DNA of 64,000 nt from Escherichia coli 042 (GCF_000027125.1 NC_017626.1); one strand, 5' to 3'; shown: positions 1-53,940, counted from the first letter of the stretch. The notes: generated from the sequence alone by a model not told the origin. A program made the numbers and translations.

Positions 1-1645
1 CATTTGCCACAAAATATCTTGCCGTGCTCCTCGGCAACGCTTCTTGCCCGCGAATCATATCCGCTATTTTCTCGCCAATCATAATCGTCGTGGCGTTCAA
101 ATTGCCGGTGATAATCTGCGGCATAATCGACGCATCCACCACACGCAGGCCTTCTAACCCGTGTACGCGGCCTTCGGCGTCAACCACTGCCATCTCGTCA
201 TAACCCATTTTGCAGGTACCGCACGGATGAAACGCGGTTTCGGCGTGGTTACGCACGAACTCATCGAGCTGCTCATCCGTCTGACATTCCGTGCCGGGGC
301 TGATTTCGCGGCCACGGTATTGATCCAGCGCGGGTTGATGCATGATCTCGCGGGTGATGCGAATTGCGTCGCGGAACTCCTGCCAGTCCTGCTCGTGCGA
401 CATGTAGTTAAACAGAATCGCTGGATGCTGGTGCGGGTCGCGGGATTTAATCCGCACATGCCCACGGCTTGGCGAGCGCATCGAGCCGACGTGGCACTGG
501 AAGCCGTGCTCTTTCACTGCATTCGAGCCGTTATAGTTAATCGCCACTGGCAGGAAATGGTACTGAATATTCGGCCACGCAAATTCCTCACGGCTGCGAA
601 TAAATCCGCCTGCTTCAAAGTGGTTGCTGGCACCAACGCCGGTGCCGCCAAACAGCCACTCCGCACCGATTTTCGGCTGATTCCACCACTGCAGGGCAGG
701 GTAGAGGGAAACCGGTTCTTTGCACTCATATTGCAGATACATCTCCAGGTGATCCTGAAGATTTTCGCCGACGCCAGGTAATTCATGCACCAGCGGAATA
801 TCAAACTCCGCCAGCAGTCCAGCGTTGCCGACGCCGGAGCGTTGCAGGATCTGCGGTGAAGCAATCGCGCCTGCACATAACAGCACTTCTTTATTCGCCG
901 CCGCGCGGGTCGGAATGGTGCTGTCGCCTTCCAGCCACTCGACGCCCACCGCGCGTTTGCCGTCAAAAATGATGTGATCGGTCATGGCGTGAGTACGAAT
1001 GGTCAGGTTAGGGCGCGATTTGGCCTGATCGAGATAGCCACGCGCGGTGCTGGCGCGACGGCCATGCGGCGTGACGGTGCGATCCATCGGGCCAAAACCT
1101 TCCTGCTGATAGCCGTTGAGATCGTCCGTGCGCGGGTAGCCCGCCTGCACGCCCGCTTCAATCATCGCTTCAAACAGCGGATTGACGCCGGGTTTGGAGG
1201 TGGTGACGCTCACCGGGCCATCACCGCCGTGGTAGTCGTTCTCGCCCACATCGCGAGTCTCGGCCTTGCGATAGTAGGGCAGACAGTCGAGGTAGCTCCA
1301 GTTCTCCAGACCGGGTTCTTGCGCCCAGTTATCAAGATCCAGCGCGTTACCACGGATGTAACACATGCCGTTGATCAGTGATGACCCGCCAAGCCCCTTA
1401 CCGCGTCCGCACTCCATGCGACGGTTATTCATAAACGGTTCGGGCTCCGTTTCATAGGCCCAGTTGTAGCGTTTACCCTGTAGCGGGAATGCCAGCGCGG
1501 CGGGCATCTGGGTGCGGAAGTCAAAGCGATAGTCCGGGCCGCCTGCTTCAAGCAGCAGCACGGTTGTGTTCGGATCTTCAGTCAGACGGGTAGCGAGGAC
1601 GTTGCCGGCTGAGCCGGCACCAATAATGATGTAGTCAAATTGCAA
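1..1645 (-). CDS. betA: choline dehydrogenase BetA, 3' end runs off the left edge of the window
   Basis: Reverse-strand translation from 1645 reads (M)[14 protein letters not shown] (FAD-binding GxGxxG) and the window edge reads ...[20 protein letters not shown], matching the BetA C-terminus; first codon is TTG with GGAGG 5 nt upstream; absent from the ORF track because the stop lies outside the window. Confidence 0.9.
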
Positions 1646-1658
1646 ATAAACCTCCTGG

Positions 1659-3131
1659 TTAGAATATGGACTGGAATTTAGCCATCTCAACCTGGATGGA
1701 CTTCACCTGGGTGTAACTCTGGAGCGTCATCACGCCGTTCTCGCGACCAATGCCGGAGTGTTTGTAGCCGCCAACGGGCATCTCAGCAGGGGATTCGCCC
1801 CAGGTGTTGATCCAGCAAATACCCGCTTCCAGCTGATGAATGACGCGATGCGCGCGGTTCAGGTCCGCCGTCACGATGCCCGCCGCCAGGCCGTAGTCGG
1901 TATCATTGGCGCGGCGAATCACTTCGTCCTCAGATTCATAAGTGAGAAGCGACATCACCGGACCGAAGATCTCTTCGCGCACGATAGTCATTTCGTCGCG
2001 GCAATCGGTGAACACGGTCGGTGCAACCCATGCGCCGTTATCGAAGCCATCGCCTTTCAGTACATCGCCGCCGCACAGTACGCGCGCGCCTTCCTCTTTG
2101 CCTTTGGCGATATAGCGCAGCACGTTATCGCGATGCGGGAAGCTGACCAGCGGGCCGAAGTTAGTTTGCGGATCGAAAACGTCGCCCGCGCGAATGCGCT
2201 CAACGCGCGCCAGAATCTTTTGTTCAAATGTGGCTTTGCATTTCGCCGGAACGAAGACGCGGGTGCCATTGGTACACACCTGACCGGAGCTGAAGAAGTT
2301 CGCCATCATGGCGATATCAGCGGCGAGATCGAGATCTGCATCGTCGAAAACGATCAGCGGTGATTTACCGCCCAGCTCCATGGTCACTTCTTTCAGGGAG
2401 GAAGCCGCCGAATTAGCCATCACTTTTTTGCCGCTGGCGACACCGCCGGTAAATGACACTTTGGCAATGCCCGGATGCTCGGTCAGATACTGCCCGGTTT
2501 CCGCACCTACGCCCGGCAGCACGTTAAATACGCCGTCCGGCAGGCCCGCTTCGCTGTAAATTTCGGCCAGCTTTAACGCGGTAAGCGGGGTGACTTCGCT
2601 CGGTTTGAAAATCATCGCGTTGCCTGCCGCCAGCGCCGGTGCGGATTTCCACAAGGCAATCTGGATCGGGTAGTTCCATGCGCCAATCCCTGCCACTACG
2701 CCCAGCGGTTCGCGGCGAGTATAAACAAATGACGTCTCACGCAATGGGATCTGGCTGCCTTCCAGCGACGGGATCAGCCCGGCGTAGTACTCGAGCACGT
2801 CCGCGCCGGTAACGATATCGACGGTTGAGGTTTCCGAATACGCTTTTCCGGTGTCGAGGGTTTCCAGTTTTGCGAGTTCGTCATTGCGTTCACGCAGAAT
2901 ATCAACGGCCCGACGCAGAATACGCGAGCGTTCCATAGCGGTCATCGCTGCCCAGATTTTTTGCCCCTGTTGGGCACTCTTCACGGCGCGATCGACATCC
3001 TCACGCCCGGCGGCCTGCACGGTCGCCAGCACGTTACCGTTGGCCGGGTTAATGGTCTCGAAGGTGCGACCGCTGGTGGCGGAGGTATAACCACCATGTA
3101 TATAAAGCTGCTGTTCTGCCATTCGGGACAT
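1659..3131 (-). CDS. betB: betaine aldehyde dehydrogenase
   Basis: 491-aa ORF in track; aldehyde dehydrogenase family sequence; start set at the second codon ([17 protein letters not shown]) rather than the upstream GTG. Confidence 0.93.
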
Positions 3132-3144
3132 CACGTCTCCTCGG

Positions 3145-3732
3145 TTAATCGGTGGGTAAATGCTGAGAAATAAAGTGACGGGTCAGCGAGTGTGCGAGAG
3201 GTTTATCCAGCGGTTTGCCGCTCAGTGCCGCGCGCAGCCATAATCCGTCAATCAGCGCGGCAAGTCCGTAGCCCGCTTCCTGCGCCTGTTGGCGCGGTAA
3301 CTCGCGGCGAAATTCGCTCACCAGATTCGACAATAAGCGGCGGCTGCTCACCTGCTGCAAACGGTAAAGCATCGGCTGATGCATACTGCTGGCCCAGAAC
3401 GCCAGCCAGGCTTTCATCGCAGCATTACTGACCTGAGTCTCATCGAAATTCCCGTCAACAATCGCCTGTAATCGCTGCTCTGCACTGCCCTGCGGAAGTG
3501 CATGTAATCGATTCAAAACCGCGTCACGCAGCTGAGTGGTGATATCGCGCATGGTTGCTTCCAGCAGACCATTTTTGTCCCTGAAATAGTGGCTGATGAT
3601 CCCCGTAGAAACGCCTGCACGGCGGGCGATCTGCGCGATCGTTGCATCGTGCATGCCCACTTCATTTATTGCTTCCAGCGTGGCGTCGATCAGTTGTCTG
3701 CGCCGGATCGACTGCATCCCCAATTTGGGCAT
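3145..3732 (-). CDS. betI: TetR-family repressor of the bet regulon
   Basis: ORF 3145..3750; conserved N-terminus [22 protein letters not shown] places the start at 3732; TetR-type HTH. Confidence 0.9.
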
Positions 3733-5936: not shown

Positions 5937-6467
5937 GAATCATTGACTCGCTGTAAAAAATTATGCATATATTATATATGATTGTCATGTCATATCCTGC
6001 AATTCCTCTTGTATCACTTCATGATTTTATATTTTATTAATTAACGATTTTATTTTGTATTAGCTGAATGGATTCAGTCCTATAGAGTTATATATTTATT
6101 AATAAGACGATTCTTATATTTTGATACCTAATAAGAGTTACCACTTTTACCGGCTGTATATTAAATGTATTTCTCTTGCTTTTGTTTATATTTTGAGTTG
6201 ATTTGAGTTCCTGGATACATATAATGCGCAGGTATTAGAGACTGGGGGGGAATGTAATGATAAAGTTAAGAGTGTTAACTTAAAATAAGTTTTCAGTAGT
6301 AACTTGCTATTTTATTACCCTCTGAACTACATACTCAGATATGTGGTTGCCAATGCTATGCAAAATTTTTGAATTTTTATATGCGATGAACAGTAACCGG
6401 AATGGCATTTAATGCGTTGCTGTTTATGCAATCTTGGTTTTATTTGGATGTATTGCTGGAGATTGTG

Positions 6468-9400
6468 ATGAATAAAATATATCGGCTAAAGTGGAACAGG
6501 TCCCGTAACTGTTGGAGCGTCTGCTCGGAGCTGGGGAGTAGAGTAAAAGGAAAAAAGTCCCGGGCTGTTTTAATTAGCGCGATAAGTTTATATTCATCTC
6601 TGGCACTGTCTAAAGATGTCGCTGTAAGTGAAGATTACACAGCTGTATTCGGTAAAGATAACCAGACTATTGATTACCGTATTTCAGTGACCGACAATGC
6701 CAATCTGGTAATCGATGCGACAGATTCTTCTCGTCCACGTCTGACTCTCGCGTCTGGTGGTGGGCTGGATATCACTGGAGGGAAGGTGCATATCAATGGC
6801 TCGCTTAACTTTTTGTTAAAAGGGACGGGGTTTCTGAACGTCGCCAATGCTGGCAGCGAGTTATATGCTGATGATTTATATGAGTCTTACTCTAATATTA
6901 CCCACGATAGAGGCTATTTTAATGTCTCCAACGGCGGCAAAATCCATGTTAAGGGCACCAGCCGTCTGACCTATTTGCAGGGAAATGTCAGCGGTGAAGG
7001 CAGCCAGGTAAATTCTAAAACCTTCTTTATGGGCGTTTACGGCAGTTACGGTGGCAATCAGTATCTGTCAGTTAATAACGGCGGTGAAGTTAATGCCAGT
7101 GAAAAAATTAGCCTAGGCTATTATGATCAAGTCTCCGATACAACACTTGCTGTTTCGGAAGGTGGTAAAATTTATGCGCCGACTATTAGTTTAAGCACCA
7201 ACTCTGAGTTAGCGTTAGGGGCACAGGAAGGAAGTGCTGCGAAGGCAGCAGGGATTATTGATGCCGAAAAAATTGAGTTTGTGTGGGCAAAGACATCCGA
7301 TAAGAAAATCACCTTAAATCACACGGATAAAAACGCGACTATTTCCGCGGATATTGTCAGTGGCAGCGAGGGCCTGGGCTATATCAATGCGCTCAATGGC
7401 ACGACTTACTTAACCGGGGATAACTCCGCCTTTAGCGGTAAAGTCAAAATTGAGCAAAATGGCGCTTTAGGGATCACCCAAAATATAGGTACAGCAGAAA
7501 TCACCAACCGCGGGAAATTACACCTGAAGGCTGACGATAGCATGACCTTTGCCAATAAGATTTCTGGCAACGGTACAATAAGTATCGACAGTGGGACAGT
7601 GACGCTGACTGGCAATAACTATGCATTCAGCGGATATATTGATGTCGCTTCTGGTGCTGTCGCGGTTATTTCTGAAGACAAGAACATCGGCCGTGCAGAA
7701 CTGGATGTTGATGGCAAATTGCAAATTAATGCCAACAAAGATTGGGTATTTGATAACGATCTTGAAGGTAGAGGCATTGTTGAAATAAACATGGGGAATC
7801 ACGAATTCTCCTTCGATGAGTTTGCCTATACAGACTGGTTCCAGGGTTCACTGGCGTTCCAGAACACGACATTTAACCTGGAAAAGAATGCTGAGTTTCT
7901 GCAGAGAGGCGGGATCACTGCGGGTCAGGGAAGCCAGGTAACAGTGGGTAAGGGCGCTCACTCCATTAGCACTTTGGGATTCTCCGGCGGAACGGTTGAT
8001 TTTGGTGCCCTGGCAGCTGGTGCACAGATGACAGAAGGGACAGTCAACGTTAGTAAAACGCTGGATTTGCGTGGCGAGGGTGTGATTCAGGTTTCTGACA
8101 GTGACGTTGTCCGCTCTGTATCTCGTGATATTGACTCTGCGTTATCGCTCACTGAAGTCGATGATGGTAACAGCACCATTAAGTTGGTTGATGCGCAAGG
8201 TGCGGAAGTTCTGGGCGATGCGGGCAATCTGCAATTGCAGGATAAAAATGGACAAATCTTCTCCAGCAGCGCCCAACGTGATATTCAGCAGAATGGGCAA
8301 AAAGCGGCCGTCGGCACTTACGACTATCGTCTGACGAGTGGGGTAAACAATGACGGTCTGTATATCGGTTACGGCCTGACCCAGCTTGAATTGCAGGCTA
8401 CCGACAGTGATGCCCTGGTGCTGAGTGCCAACGGTAAAAGCGAGAATGCCGCCGATCTTAGTGCAAAGATTACCGGCAGTGGTGACCTGGCCTTCAGCAG
8501 CCAGAAAGGTCAGACCGTATCGCTTTCTAACAAAGACAACGACTATACCGGTATTACCGATCTGCGCAGCGGGACGCTTTTGTTGAATAACGATAACGTG
8601 TTGGGTAATACCCATGAACTGCGTCTGGCGGCAGAGACTGAACTGGATATGAATGGTCACAGCCAGATCGTGGGCACGCTCAATGGCAGCGCCGATTCAC
8701 TGCTGAGCTTGAACGGCGGGAGTCTGACGGTTACCAACGGGGGCACTTCAACCGGTTCGTTAACGGGGAGCGGAGAGCTGAATATTCAGGGCGGCACGCT
8801 GGACATCGCGGGCGATAACAGCAACCTGACGGCGAATGTGAACATTGCTAATTCGGCTAATGTCCTGGTAAGTCATGCGCAGGGATTGGGTAGCGCAAAC
8901 GTTGAGAACAACGGTACCCTGGCGTTGAATAATAGCGCTGAAAAAAGAGCGGCTGCGTCTGTGAATTACACCCTGGGCGGCAATCTGACCAACAACGGTA
9001 CGCTGATGACCGGAATGTCAGGACAGCAAGCTGGCAATATGTTAGTGGTGAAGGGGAACTACCACGGTAATAACGGTCAACTAGTAATGAATACGGTACT
9101 GAATGGCGATGACTCAGTAACCGATAAATTGGTTGTCGAGGGCGATACTAGCGGCACGACTGCCGTTACGGTGAATAACGCTGGCGGTACAGGTGCGAAA
9201 ACCCTTAACGGTATCGAACTTATCCATGTTGACGGTAAGTCTGAGGGCGAATTCGTTCAGGCTGGGCGTATCGTTGCGGGGGCATATGACTACACTCTCG
9301 CGCGTGGACAAGGGGCAAATAGTGGTAACTGGTATCTGACCAGCGGCAGTGATTCTCCTGAACTGCAGCCGGAGCCAGACCCGATGCCGAATCCGGAGCC

Positions 9401-10451
9401 AAACCCGAATCCAGAGCCGAACCCTAACCCGACACCTACGCCGGGTCCGGATCTGAATGTGGATAATGACCTGCGACCGGAGGCGGGTAGCTACATTGCG
9501 AACCTTGCAGCAGCGAATACCATGTTCACCACGCGTCTGCATGAGCGTCTGGGTAATACGTACTATACCGACATGGTGACGGGTGAGCAGAAACAAACCA
9601 CTATGTGGATGCGCCATGAAGGTGGTCATAATAAATGGCGTGATGGCAGCGGCCAGCTGAAAACCCAAAGCAATCGCTATGTTCTGCAACTGGGAGGCGA
9701 TATCGCGCAGTGGAGCCAAAACGGCAGCGACAGCTGGCATGTTGGGGTCATGGCGGGATATGGCAACAGCGACAGCAAAACCATTTCCTCGCGAACTGGT
9801 TATCGTGCTAAAGCGAGTGTGAACGGATATAGCACAGGCCTCTATGCCACCTGGTATGCCGATGACGAGTCGCGTAATGGCGCGTATCTCGACAGTTGGG
9901 CGCAGTACAGCTGGTTTGATAACACAGTGAAAGGTGATGATTTACAAAGTGAATCCTATAAATCAAAAGGATTTACCGCTTCACTGGAAGCTGGATACAA
10001 ACACAAATTAGCTGAATTTAATGGCAGCCAGGGAACGCGTAATGAATGGTATGTTCAGCCGCAAGCACAGGTTACCTGGATGGGAGTCAAAGCCGATAAG
10101 CACCGCGAAAACAATGGAACCCTCGTTCATAGCAACGGTGATGGCAATGTTCAAACCCGACTTGGCGTAAAAACCTGGCTGAAGAGCCACCATAAAATGG
10201 ATGACGGTAAATCCCGCGAGTTCCAGCCGTTTGTAGAAGTGAACTGGCTGCATAACAGTAAGGATTTCAGCACCAGTATGGATGGCGTGTCCGTCACTCA
10301 GGATGGAGCCCGAAATATTGCTGAGATAAAAACCGGGGTGGAAGGACAGCTAAATGCCAACCTGAATGTCTGGGGGAATGTGGGCGTTCAGGTTGCCGAT
10401 AGGGGATATAATGACACCTCTGCAATGGTTGGCATTAAGTGGCAATTCTGA
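6468..10451 (+). CDS. ehaA: AIDA-I-type (type Va) autotransporter adhesin, 1327 aa, EhaA-like
   Basis: ORF 6402..10451; start set at ATG 6468 (MNKIYRLKWNRSRNCWSVCSELG... extended autotransporter signal peptide) with GGAGA 6 nt upstream; repetitive Gly/Thr/Asn-rich passenger; Pro-rich PEPDPMPNPEPNPNPEPNPNPTPTPGP linker; C-terminal beta-barrel ending ...GIKWQF. Gene symbol is from memory of the EHEC autotransporter at this locus and is uncertain. Confidence 0.8.
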   Translation: MNKIYRLKWNRSRNCWSVCSELGSRVKGKKSRAVLISAISLYSSLALSKDVAVSEDYTAVFGKDNQTIDYRISVTDNANLVIDATDSSRPRLTLASGGGLDITGGKVHINGSLNFLLKGTGFLNVANAGSELYADDLYESYSNITHDRGYFNVSNGGKIHVKGTSRLTYLQGNVSGEGSQVNSKTFFMGVYGSYGGNQYLSVNNGGEVNASEKISLGYYDQVSDTTLAVSEGGKIYAPTISLSTNSELALGAQEGSAAKAAGIIDAEKIEFVWAKTSDKKITLNHTDKNATISADIVSGSEGLGYINALNGTTYLTGDNSAFSGKVKIEQNGALGITQNIGTAEITNRGKLHLKADDSMTFANKISGNGTISIDSGTVTLTGNNYAFSGYIDVASGAVAVISEDKNIGRAELDVDGKLQINANKDWVFDNDLEGRGIVEINMGNHEFSFDEFAYTDWFQGSLAFQNTTFNLEKNAEFLQRGGITAGQGSQVTVGKGAHSISTLGFSGGTVDFGALAAGAQMTEGTVNVSKTLDLRGEGVIQVSDSDVVRSVSRDIDSALSLTEVDDGNSTIKLVDAQGAEVLGDAGNLQLQDKNGQIFSSSAQRDIQQNGQKAAVGTYDYRLTSGVNNDGLYIGYGLTQLELQATDSDALVLSANGKSENAADLSAKITGSGDLAFSSQKGQTVSLSNKDNDYTGITDLRSGTLLLNNDNVLGNTHELRLAAETELDMNGHSQIVGTLNGSADSLLSLNGGSLTVTNGGTSTGSLTGSGELNIQGGTLDIAGDNSNLTANVNIANSANVLVSHAQGLGSANVENNGTLALNNSAEKRAAASVNYTLGGNLTNNGTLMTGMSGQQAGNMLVVKGNYHGNNGQLVMNTVLNGDDSVTDKLVVEGDTSGTTAVTVNNAGGTGAKTLNGIELIHVDGKSEGEFVQAGRIVAGAYDYTLARGQGANSGNWYLTSGSDSPELQPEPDPMPNPEPNPNPEPNPNPTPTPGPDLNVDNDLRPEAGSYIANLAAANTMFTTRLHERLGNTYYTDMVTGEQKQTTMWMRHEGGHNKWRDGSGQLKTQSNRYVLQLGGDIAQWSQNGSDSWHVGVMAGYGNSDSKTISSRTGYRAKASVNGYSTGLYATWYADDESRNGAYLDSWAQYSWFDNTVKGDDLQSESYKSKGFTASLEAGYKHKLAEFNGSQGTRNEWYVQPQAQVTWMGVKADKHRENNGTLVHSNGDGNVQTRLGVKTWLKSHHKMDDGKSREFQPFVEVNWLHNSKDFSTSMDGVSVTQDGARNIAEIKTGVEGQLNANLNVWGNVGVQVADRGYNDTSAMVGIKWQF

Positions 10452-17988: not shown

Positions 17989-18161
17989 GCCGGATGCGGC
18001 GTGAACGCCTTATCCGGCCTACGAGTGGCGCGAGAATCTGTAGGCCTGATAAGCGTAGCGCATCAGGCATTTGTCACCATTGCCGGATGCGGCGTGAACG
18101 CCTTATCCGGCCTACGAATGGCACGAGAATTCTAGGCCTGATAAGCGTAGCGCATCAGGCA
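17989..18161. repeat. BIME: four alternating REP palindromes
   Basis: gccggatgcggcgtgaacgccttatccggcctacg and gtaggcctgataagcgtagcgcatcaggca units, each present twice. Confidence 0.9.
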
Positions 18162-28298: not shown

Positions 28299-28770
28299 CG
28301 ACAACCGATGCCTGATGCGCCGCTGACGCGGCTTATCAGGCCTACGGGATGAACTGAACTGTAGGTCGGATAAGACGCATAGCGTCGCATCCGACAACCG
28401 ATGCCTGATGCGCCGCTGACGCGGCTTATCAGGCCTACGGGGTGAACTGAACTGTAGGTCGGATAAGACGCATAGCGTCGCATCCGACAACCGATGCCTG
28501 ATGCGCCGCTGACGCGGCTTATCAGGCCTACGGGGCGTGCTGAACTGTAGGTCGGATAAGACGTATGGCGTCGCATCCGACAACCGATGCCTGATGCGCC
28601 GCTGACGCGACTTATCAGGCCTACGGGGTGAACTGAACTGTAGGTCGGATAAGACGCATGGCGTCGCATCCGACAACCGATGCCTGATGCGACGCTGACG
28701 CGGCTTATCAGGCCTGCGGGGTGAACTGAACTGTAGGTCGGATAAGACGCATAGCGTCGCATCCGACAAC
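28299..28770. repeat. tandem REP/BIME array, about five copies of a 93-bp unit
   Basis: cgacaaccgatgcctgatgcgccgctgacgcggcttatcaggcctacgg...gtaggtcggataagacgcatagcgtcgcatc recurs at 28299, 28392, 28485, 28578 and 28671. Confidence 0.9.
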
Positions 28771-33396: not shown

Positions 33397-33863
33397 GTCG
33401 GATGCGTCGTGTGGCGCATCCGACACCGTGCGCCGATGCCTGATGCGACGCTGACGCGTCTTATCATGCCTACAGGCCTGAACCGTAGGTCGGATAAGGC
33501 GCTCGCGCCGCATCCGACACCGTGCGCCGATGCCTGATGCGACGCTGACGCGTCTTATCATGCCTACAGGCCTGAACCGTAGGTCGGATAAGGCGCTCGC
33601 GCCGCATCCGACACCGTGCGCCGATGCCTGATGCGACGCTGGCGCGTCTTATCATGCCTACAGGTCTGAACCGTAGGTCGGATAAGGCGCTCGCGCCGCA
33701 TCCGACACCGTGCGCAGATGCCTGATACGACGCTGGCGCGTCTTATCATGCCTACAGGCCTGAACCGTAGGTCGGATAAGGCGCTCGCGCCGCATCCGAC
33801 ACCGTGCGCAGATGCCTGATGCGACGCTGACGCGTCTTATCATGCCCACAGGCCTGAACCGTG
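33397..33863. repeat. tandem REP/BIME array, about five copies of a 94-bp unit
   Basis: unit cgacaccgtgcgccgatgcctgatgcgacgctgacgcgtcttatcatgcctacaggcctgaaccgtaggtcggataaggcgctcgcgccgcatc recurs at 33421, 33515, 33609, 33703 and 33797. Confidence 0.9.
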
Positions 33864-40108: not shown

Positions 40109-40720
40109 TTAAACTGAAGGCTCAACTTTATAATCTTTGTAATAATAGTGCTTATCCCGGTCGTTTATTTCGCGAATAACCCGACAAGGAACGCCAGCAG
40201 CCACGACGTTTGGTGGAATGTCTTTTATGACGACACTACCCGCGCCAATAACAGAATTATCCCCGATGGTGACGCCTGGATTAATGACCACATGACTTCC
40301 GATCCAGACGTTATTGCCAATCGTTATCGGAAAAGAGTACATCTCACCGTTTTTTCTTAATTCATGGTGTACCGGGTGTCCCGTAACGGAAAGAGTAACG
40401 TTGGGTGCAATCAGTACGTTATCACCGATTGTTACCGTGTAGTCATCGACAATGGTTAAATTAAAATTTGCATAAAAATTGCGGCCTATATGGATGTTGG
40501 AACCGTAAGAGAAATAGACGGGAGGTTCTACCCAGGCGTTTTCCCCTACCGTGGCAAACATTTCTTTAATCAGGCTTTCTCTTTTTTCAACTTCTGATGG
40601 ATGCGAGTGATTAAACTCATACATTAACGTTTTCCCACGAAGTCTTTTTTCCGGTAAGCCTTCGCACATATCGGTAAATAGCTTGCCTGCTTTTATTCTT
40701 TCGGTCATTGGCATGTTCAT
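40109..40720 (-). CDS. lacA: galactoside O-acetyltransferase
   Basis: ORF 40109..40771 extends into a REP element; start set at ATG 40720 (MNMPMTERI, 203 aa); hexapeptide-repeat acetyltransferase. Confidence 0.92.
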   Translation of the reverse strand: MNMPMTERIKAGKLFTDMCEGLPEKRLRGKTLMYEFNHSHPSEVEKRESLIKEMFATVGENAWVEPPVYFSYGSNIHIGRNFYANFNLTIVDDYTVTIGDNVLIAPNVTLSVTGHPVHHELRKNGEMYSFPITIGNNVWIGSHVVINPGVTIGDNSVIGAGSVVIKDIPPNVVAAGVPCRVIREINDRDKHYYYKDYKVEPSV

Positions 40721-53788: not shown

Positions 53789-53940
53789 TGCCGGATGCGG
53801 CGTGAACGCCTTATCCGGCCTACGGATGGCGCGAGAATTTGTAGGCCAGATAAGACGCGTTAGCGTCGCATCAGGCATCTGAGCACGACTGCCGGATGCG
53901 GCGTAAACGTCTTGTTCGGCCTACATTTCGCCTGTAGGCA
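53789..53940. repeat. BIME: three to four REP palindromes
   Basis: tgccggatgcggcgtgaacgccttatccggcctacg, gtaggccagataagacgcgttagcgtcgcatcaggca and a degenerate third copy. Confidence 0.88.

Follow-up and report, generated by a model that had tools for sequence, protein, structure and literature searches.

The choline dehydrogenase gene betA of Escherichia coli 042 begins with TTG, and this codon (1645..1643, minus strand; coordinates refer to the window, i.e., the whole stretch of 64,000 nucleotides that was analyzed) is very probably the genuine and normal initiation codon of the gene, positioned by a Shine-Dalgarno (SD) sequence, fixed in E. coli, and representing an old, lineage-specific state. 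As judged by comparison of sequences and annotations, the TTG is the ordinary, conserved, and annotated state of the reference, is already known as such, and is not specific to this strain. The original prediction of a TTG-initiated betA with GGAGG 5 nt upstream is borne out by the minus-strand sequence, whereas its further proposal that the TTG lowers BetA relative to BetB is plausible on general grounds, the evidence being mixed and indirect.

In coding orientation, the minus strand at the betB-betA junction reads AAA TTC CAG TCC ATA TTC TAA CC AGGAGGT TTAT TTG CAA TTT GAC TAC ATC ATT ATT GGT GCC GGC. The betB stop codon TAA (1661..1659, minus strand) lies 13 nt before the betA start, in the same geometry as in the K-12 annotation, and is followed by the SD sequence AGGAGGT (1656..1650, minus strand), the core of which, GGAGG, occupies 1655..1651. 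The core is separated from the TTG by the 5-nt spacer TTTAT (1646..1650, minus strand), with position 1650 also belonging to the extended AGGAGGT match, and the codons after the TTG, CAA TTT GAC TAC, encode Q-F-D-Y. Canonical UUG-initiated genes are recognized by an in-frame TTG with an SD sequence 4–9 nt upstream, and betA has this arrangement with its GGAGG core at 5 nt. The span originally singled out (1643–1660) takes in the start codon, the spacer, the SD sequence, and all but one base of the betB stop codon; the accompanying remark on the absence of an in-frame ATG after the betB stop is correct, but in a gap of only 13 nt it is trivial. The betA coding sequence, defined by its translation and a match to TIGR01810, extends over 1..1645 on the minus strand, with its 3′ end beyond the window edge. 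The upstream cistron betB, encoding betaine-aldehyde dehydrogenase and defined by its open reading frame (ORF) and a match to NF009725, starts with ATG and occupies 1659..3131 on the minus strand, and the betI-betB junction, TAA CCGAGGAGACGTG ATG (3132..3144, minus strand), likewise has a 13-nt stop-to-start gap. The betI-betB (region 3132–3147, minus strand) and betB-betA junctions resemble each other in both the 13-nt spacing and a TAACC...AGGAG layout.

The identity of the gene and the fit of its N-terminus both accord with initiation at the TTG. BetA scored 1026 bits against the NCBIfam model TIGR01810 (choline dehydrogenase, GMC oxidoreductase), an equivalog family model the curated cut-off of which, 732 bits, was used to decide BetA membership. 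Residues 4–537 of BetA align with positions 1–532 of the 532 positions of this profile, and the TTG start consequently fits the N-terminus of the family because the profile begins at BetA residue 4; in the NF002550 profile, profile position 4 aligns with BetA residue 1. The FAD-binding GxGxxG motif is found as GAGSAG at residues 9–14 of the TTG-initiated protein. Furthermore, BetB matched NF009725 with 917 bits over residues 1–490, and the bet operon context is present as betI-betB-betA with divergent betT, betB being assigned by hidden Markov model and betI and betT by ORF size and arrangement. The K-12 bet operon is annotated with the same betI-betB-betA/betT arrangement.

Initiation at this codon has been captured in vitro by INRI-seq, in which all K-12 start regions, synthesized as a pool and each extending from −30 to +150 nt, were translated in a cell-free system with the initiation inhibitor retapamulin (PMC9825163). 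The betA oligonucleotide of that study contains exactly the TTG junction of the window (PMC9825163), and the betA TTG thus already forms part of a published oligonucleotide pool with which E. coli start sites were examined by ribosome profiling in a cell-free system. On this identical K-12 sequence, initiating ribosomes were arrested at the annotated betA start (327247), with 105, 89, 85, 70, and 91 counts per million (CPM) in five of five replicates, and the start was called as detected (PMC9825163, Table S2); the betB start gave 29–52 CPM, and no alternative betA start was called (PMC9825163). The in vitro initiation peak of the betA start region is thus approximately twice that of the betB ATG, or approximately 3.6 times when expressed per transcript. 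In vivo retapamulin profiling (Ribo-RET), also listed in the INRI-seq table, has values of 0 for betA and betB alike (PMC9825163), most likely because the operon was uninduced. The part of the TRAINSPOTTER N-terminal proteomics table covered here has no entry for P17444 or b0311, hence no BetA N-terminal peptide, a search for further N-terminal data was likewise negative, and full-text literature searches, the coverage of which did not extend to the 1991 bet sequence paper, returned no explicit statement on the betA start codon. Regarding betB, Table S3 of the INRI-seq study lists an additional in-frame ATG initiation 9 nt into the K-12 gene (codon 4 of MSRM; 8.6 CPM, two replicates), and the MSRM sequence is also present in betB of the window (3122–3131, minus strand).

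Upstream of the annotated start, the nearest stop in the betA frame (TGA, 1705..1703) is 20 codons away, which gives some room for a true start elsewhere, either at an in-frame TTG (1690..1688, minus strand), 15 codons upstream within the 3′ end of betB, or at the first downstream in-frame ATG, which is codon 47. Neither ATG nor GTG occurs in the betA frame across the 20-codon interval. The upstream TTG was left out of the INRI-seq template, which reaches only 30 nt upstream and is read in a peak window of 12–18 nt from the start, and this candidate was formally beyond the reach of the assay. It was nevertheless rejected: it has no properly spaced SD sequence, it lies inside betB, Pluralibacter gergoviae and Enterobacter sp. 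Ag1 carry stops in the matching interval, and it would append 15 residues absent from every orthologue. The ATG at codon 47 was rejected as well, on the grounds that it would remove the GAGSAG motif, while the family profiles begin at residues 1–4. ATT at 1647..1645 is out of frame and cannot encode BetA. Moreover, in 116 of 116 listed orthologous loci, the start is found 8–14 codons before the GxGxxG motif. A true start at either of the two in-frame positions is accordingly very improbable, which leaves the TTG at 1645..1643 as the one sensible betA start, no other start keeping the FAD motif in the way expected from the family profiles and the orthologues.

The TTG is shared with the K-12 reference. 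In K-12 MG1655, the annotated betA (b0311, NP_414845.1; NC_000913.3 325577..327247, minus strand) begins with the same TTG, and the betB-betA junction is base-for-base identical to that of the window, with the same TTG, SD sequence, and 13-nt gap. The original prediction had left aside whether the reference also uses TTG; it does, which makes the codon a normal conserved start and not a peculiarity of this sequence, the very outcome that the prediction had itself named as its refutation. The NCBI annotation pipeline likewise starts betA at TTG in a window-identical strain and in a K-12 derivative, and the RefSeq starts of K-12 and of the window-identical strain therefore agree with TTG initiation of BetA. 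The surrounding 501 nt are approximately 97% identical in K-12 MG1655, and BetA is annotated with 562 amino acids in the window-identical strain compared with 556 in K-12, a C-terminal difference that falls outside the window. The betA/betB region (positions 1–1900 of the window) is 100% identical to strain BEC1-S17-ESBL-09 but only about 97.4% identical to K-12-like strains.

Among E. coli records in general, a 41-nt junction query centered on the start codon was 100% identical in 5149 of 5183 records, the latter coming from 5179 of 5426 genomes. Exact-match queries with the TTG of this 41-mer replaced by ATG or GTG found none in the 5183 records. The other 34 records have one difference in the 41-mer; the single variant inspected had lost a C in TAACC and kept the TTG, and exact-match queries found an ATG or GTG start in none of the 34 variant-junction records, other changes of the TTG being possible there. 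A sequencing error, raised as a possibility in the original prediction, or a private mutation of the strain is refuted by a junction identical in so many records, K-12 MG1655 included, and its probability is practically nil.

The distribution of the codon outside E. coli was obtained by searching a single genome of each species for the BetA motif, which gave at least 120 loci, 116 of them with enough upstream sequence; for each locus, the start was called as the in-frame start codon 8–14 codons before the GxGxxG motif. Among the matches listed, betA starts with ATG in 112 of 116, TTG in three, and GTG in one. The TTG loci among these matches, all in unannotated sequence, belong to Enterobacter sp. 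BIGb0383, an Enterobacter metagenome-assembled genome, and Lelliottia nimipressuralis, and all three have the homologous junction TAACCGGGAGGTTT(A/T)TTTGCAATTTGAC. Furthermore, records of a plasmid collection include Klebsiella pneumoniae and K. aerogenes, in which the homologous TTG is annotated as the start, making five species besides E. coli that have it. In betA of Klebsiella, Enterobacter, and Lelliottia, the homologous TTG start is likewise placed directly after the stop codon of betB, and a seven-sequence alignment shows no variation in the GGAGG core, whereas the spacer, 5 nt in K. pneumoniae, Enterobacter, and Lelliottia, is one nucleotide longer in K. aerogenes, reads TTTTT in some sequences, and is accompanied by synonymous-site changes. 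By contrast, betA is started by ATG in Pluralibacter, Pantoea, Rosenbergiella, Brenneria, Rahnella, Proteus, Providencia, Moellerella, and Xenorhabdus among the Enterobacterales and in Pseudomonas, Acinetobacter, Halomonas, Xanthomonas, and Burkholderia elsewhere. These ATG orthologues are the same enzyme, with the N-terminus likewise 8–14 codons before GxGxxG; Pluralibacter betA has an ATG and yet the same 13-nt gap after betB, and in several other species betA also directly follows betB.

Because the distant BetA orthologues mostly use ATG, the TTG appears to be derived within one branch of the Enterobacteriaceae, and it is most simply explained as an old derived state of the Escherichia-Klebsiella-Enterobacter group that would have arisen by one substitution. 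The TTG lineages probably reflect one ancestral event, and the association of TTG with a strong SD sequence therefore counts as one observation rather than six.

The SD sequence of betA is unusually strong. Its predicted duplex with the anti-SD at the 3′ end of 16S rRNA has an energy of −11.5 kcal/mol in all six TTG lineages, compared with a median of −8.0 kcal/mol in the 112 listed ATG orthologues, approximately 5% of which are as strong; within the same operon, the predicted values are −8.9 kcal/mol for betB and −6.7 kcal/mol for betI. The 100-nt betA start region has no significant predicted structure relative to shuffled sequence (z = −1.67), and its UUG remains unpaired. A weak start codon is here combined with such an SD sequence, and the site as a whole is not evidently a weak one.

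These features are compatible with a simple mode of initiation. The betA TTG is very probably read as fMet by the initiator tRNA, with the 30S subunit positioned by the near-perfect SD sequence AGGAGGU, the GGAGG core of which ends 5 nt before the TTG. The geometry of a coupled pair is present, comprising the 13-nt gap and an SD sequence that begins 2 nt past the TAA at the end of the upstream gene, and because of the latter a ribosome terminating on betB would sit at the betA start, such that ribosomes ending betB could be set free right at the start of betA. Coupled translation of betB and betA, or re-initiation, is accordingly suggested by this geometry as the likely arrangement, and the TTG, a canonical but weaker start codon of E. 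coli, may here be offset by the unusually strong SD sequence. Non-ATG starts of this canonical kind are likewise found on other operon genes, such as lacA (TTG in K-12) and lacI (GTG).

Whether the TTG has a regulatory meaning is a separate matter. Start-codon choice sets the expression level (10.1101/063800, PMC11445065): approximately 3% of E. coli genes start with UUG, which in reporter constructs supports initiation at 10–100% of the level seen with AUG (10.1101/063800), and an 8- to 12-fold lower expression from TTG has been quoted (PMC11445065). Such published reductions relative to ATG lend some weight to the proposal, doubtful in our estimation, that the TTG is a selected brake holding BetA, which makes betaine aldehyde, below BetB, which consumes it, on one transcript. 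BetA is membrane-associated and for this reason probably under-sampled by proteomics, a point against the proposal. In the absolute proteome data of Mori et al. (2021; Dataset EV8), all 30 samples yielded a value for BetB, while BetA was quantified in 13 and undetected in 17, and in the 13 samples with both proteins the BetA/BetB mass ratio had a median of 0.30 (range 0.11–0.44), or approximately 0.25 by mole. This excess of BetB is what a brake on BetA would produce, and retention of the TTG across Escherichia, Klebsiella, Enterobacter, and Lelliottia points in the same direction. Against it stand the in vitro peak of betA, which exceeds that of betB, the SD sequence, which is among the strongest of the family and does not obviously act as a brake, and the use of ATG by most of the listed orthologues in the same operon context; the invariance of the three bases of the codon is uninformative, most columns of the seven-sequence alignment being invariant. 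No report of a TTG-to-ATG swap at betA was found in the papers searched.

A further comparison is provided by lacA, the start codon of which (40720..40718, minus strand) is ATG in the window and TTG in K-12 MG1655; the corresponding 41-mer with the ATG allele of the window has exact matches in 312 E. coli records and that with the K-12 TTG allele in 1556. The lacA start thus varies among strains, showing that start-codon polymorphism can persist in E. coli, whereas neither ATG nor GTG replaces the betA TTG in any of the records searched. This contrast would favor selection on the betA codon and is suggestive, no more. It also counts against the alternative of a neutral history, in which the TTG went to fixation a single time, by accident, in the common ancestor of Escherichia, Klebsiella, and Enterobacter and, devoid of regulatory meaning, is tolerated because the strong SD sequence and coupling to betB provide sufficient BetA; the point is weak, however, in that a single-step change to ATG or GTG in 0 of 5183 records concerns one site. 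In favor of neutrality, the junction is homologous in every TTG lineage found, as expected of a single origin, and each of them has a strong SD sequence; initiation in vitro is not weak, and TTG is an ordinary start for a few percent of E. coli genes. We hold this neutral account tentatively, at a little less than an even chance. A more elaborate proposal, in which the weak TTG and the exceptional SD sequence after the betB stop form a selected design whereby BetA would be synthesized mainly by ribosomes arriving from betB, at a BetA:BetB ratio of approximately 1:4 that would guard against build-up of betaine aldehyde, is considered improbable.

The betA start is a tidy case of a weak codon joined to a strong SD sequence at a 13-nt operon junction and in itself matters little, but, in a pathway of two steps linked by a toxic aldehyde, the betB-betA junction could be used for testing how the choice of start codon and translational coupling set the ratio of the enzymes.

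Elsewhere in the window, an ORF of 1349 amino acids (6402–10451, plus strand) lies between betT and a pdeL-like gene and carries an extended type V signal peptide (ESPR), an autochaperone domain, and an autotransporter beta-domain. It may presumably correspond to the EhaA autotransporter of O157:H7. In K-12, no annotated gene is listed between betT and pdeL (b0314 and b0315, in the order of the INRI-seq table). Furthermore, matches to the Rfam family naRNA4 (REP-derived nucleoid-associated RNA) form repeat clusters at 28364–28714, 33488–33846, 18043–18112, and 53844–53921, comprising two arrays of four copies each and two single copies.
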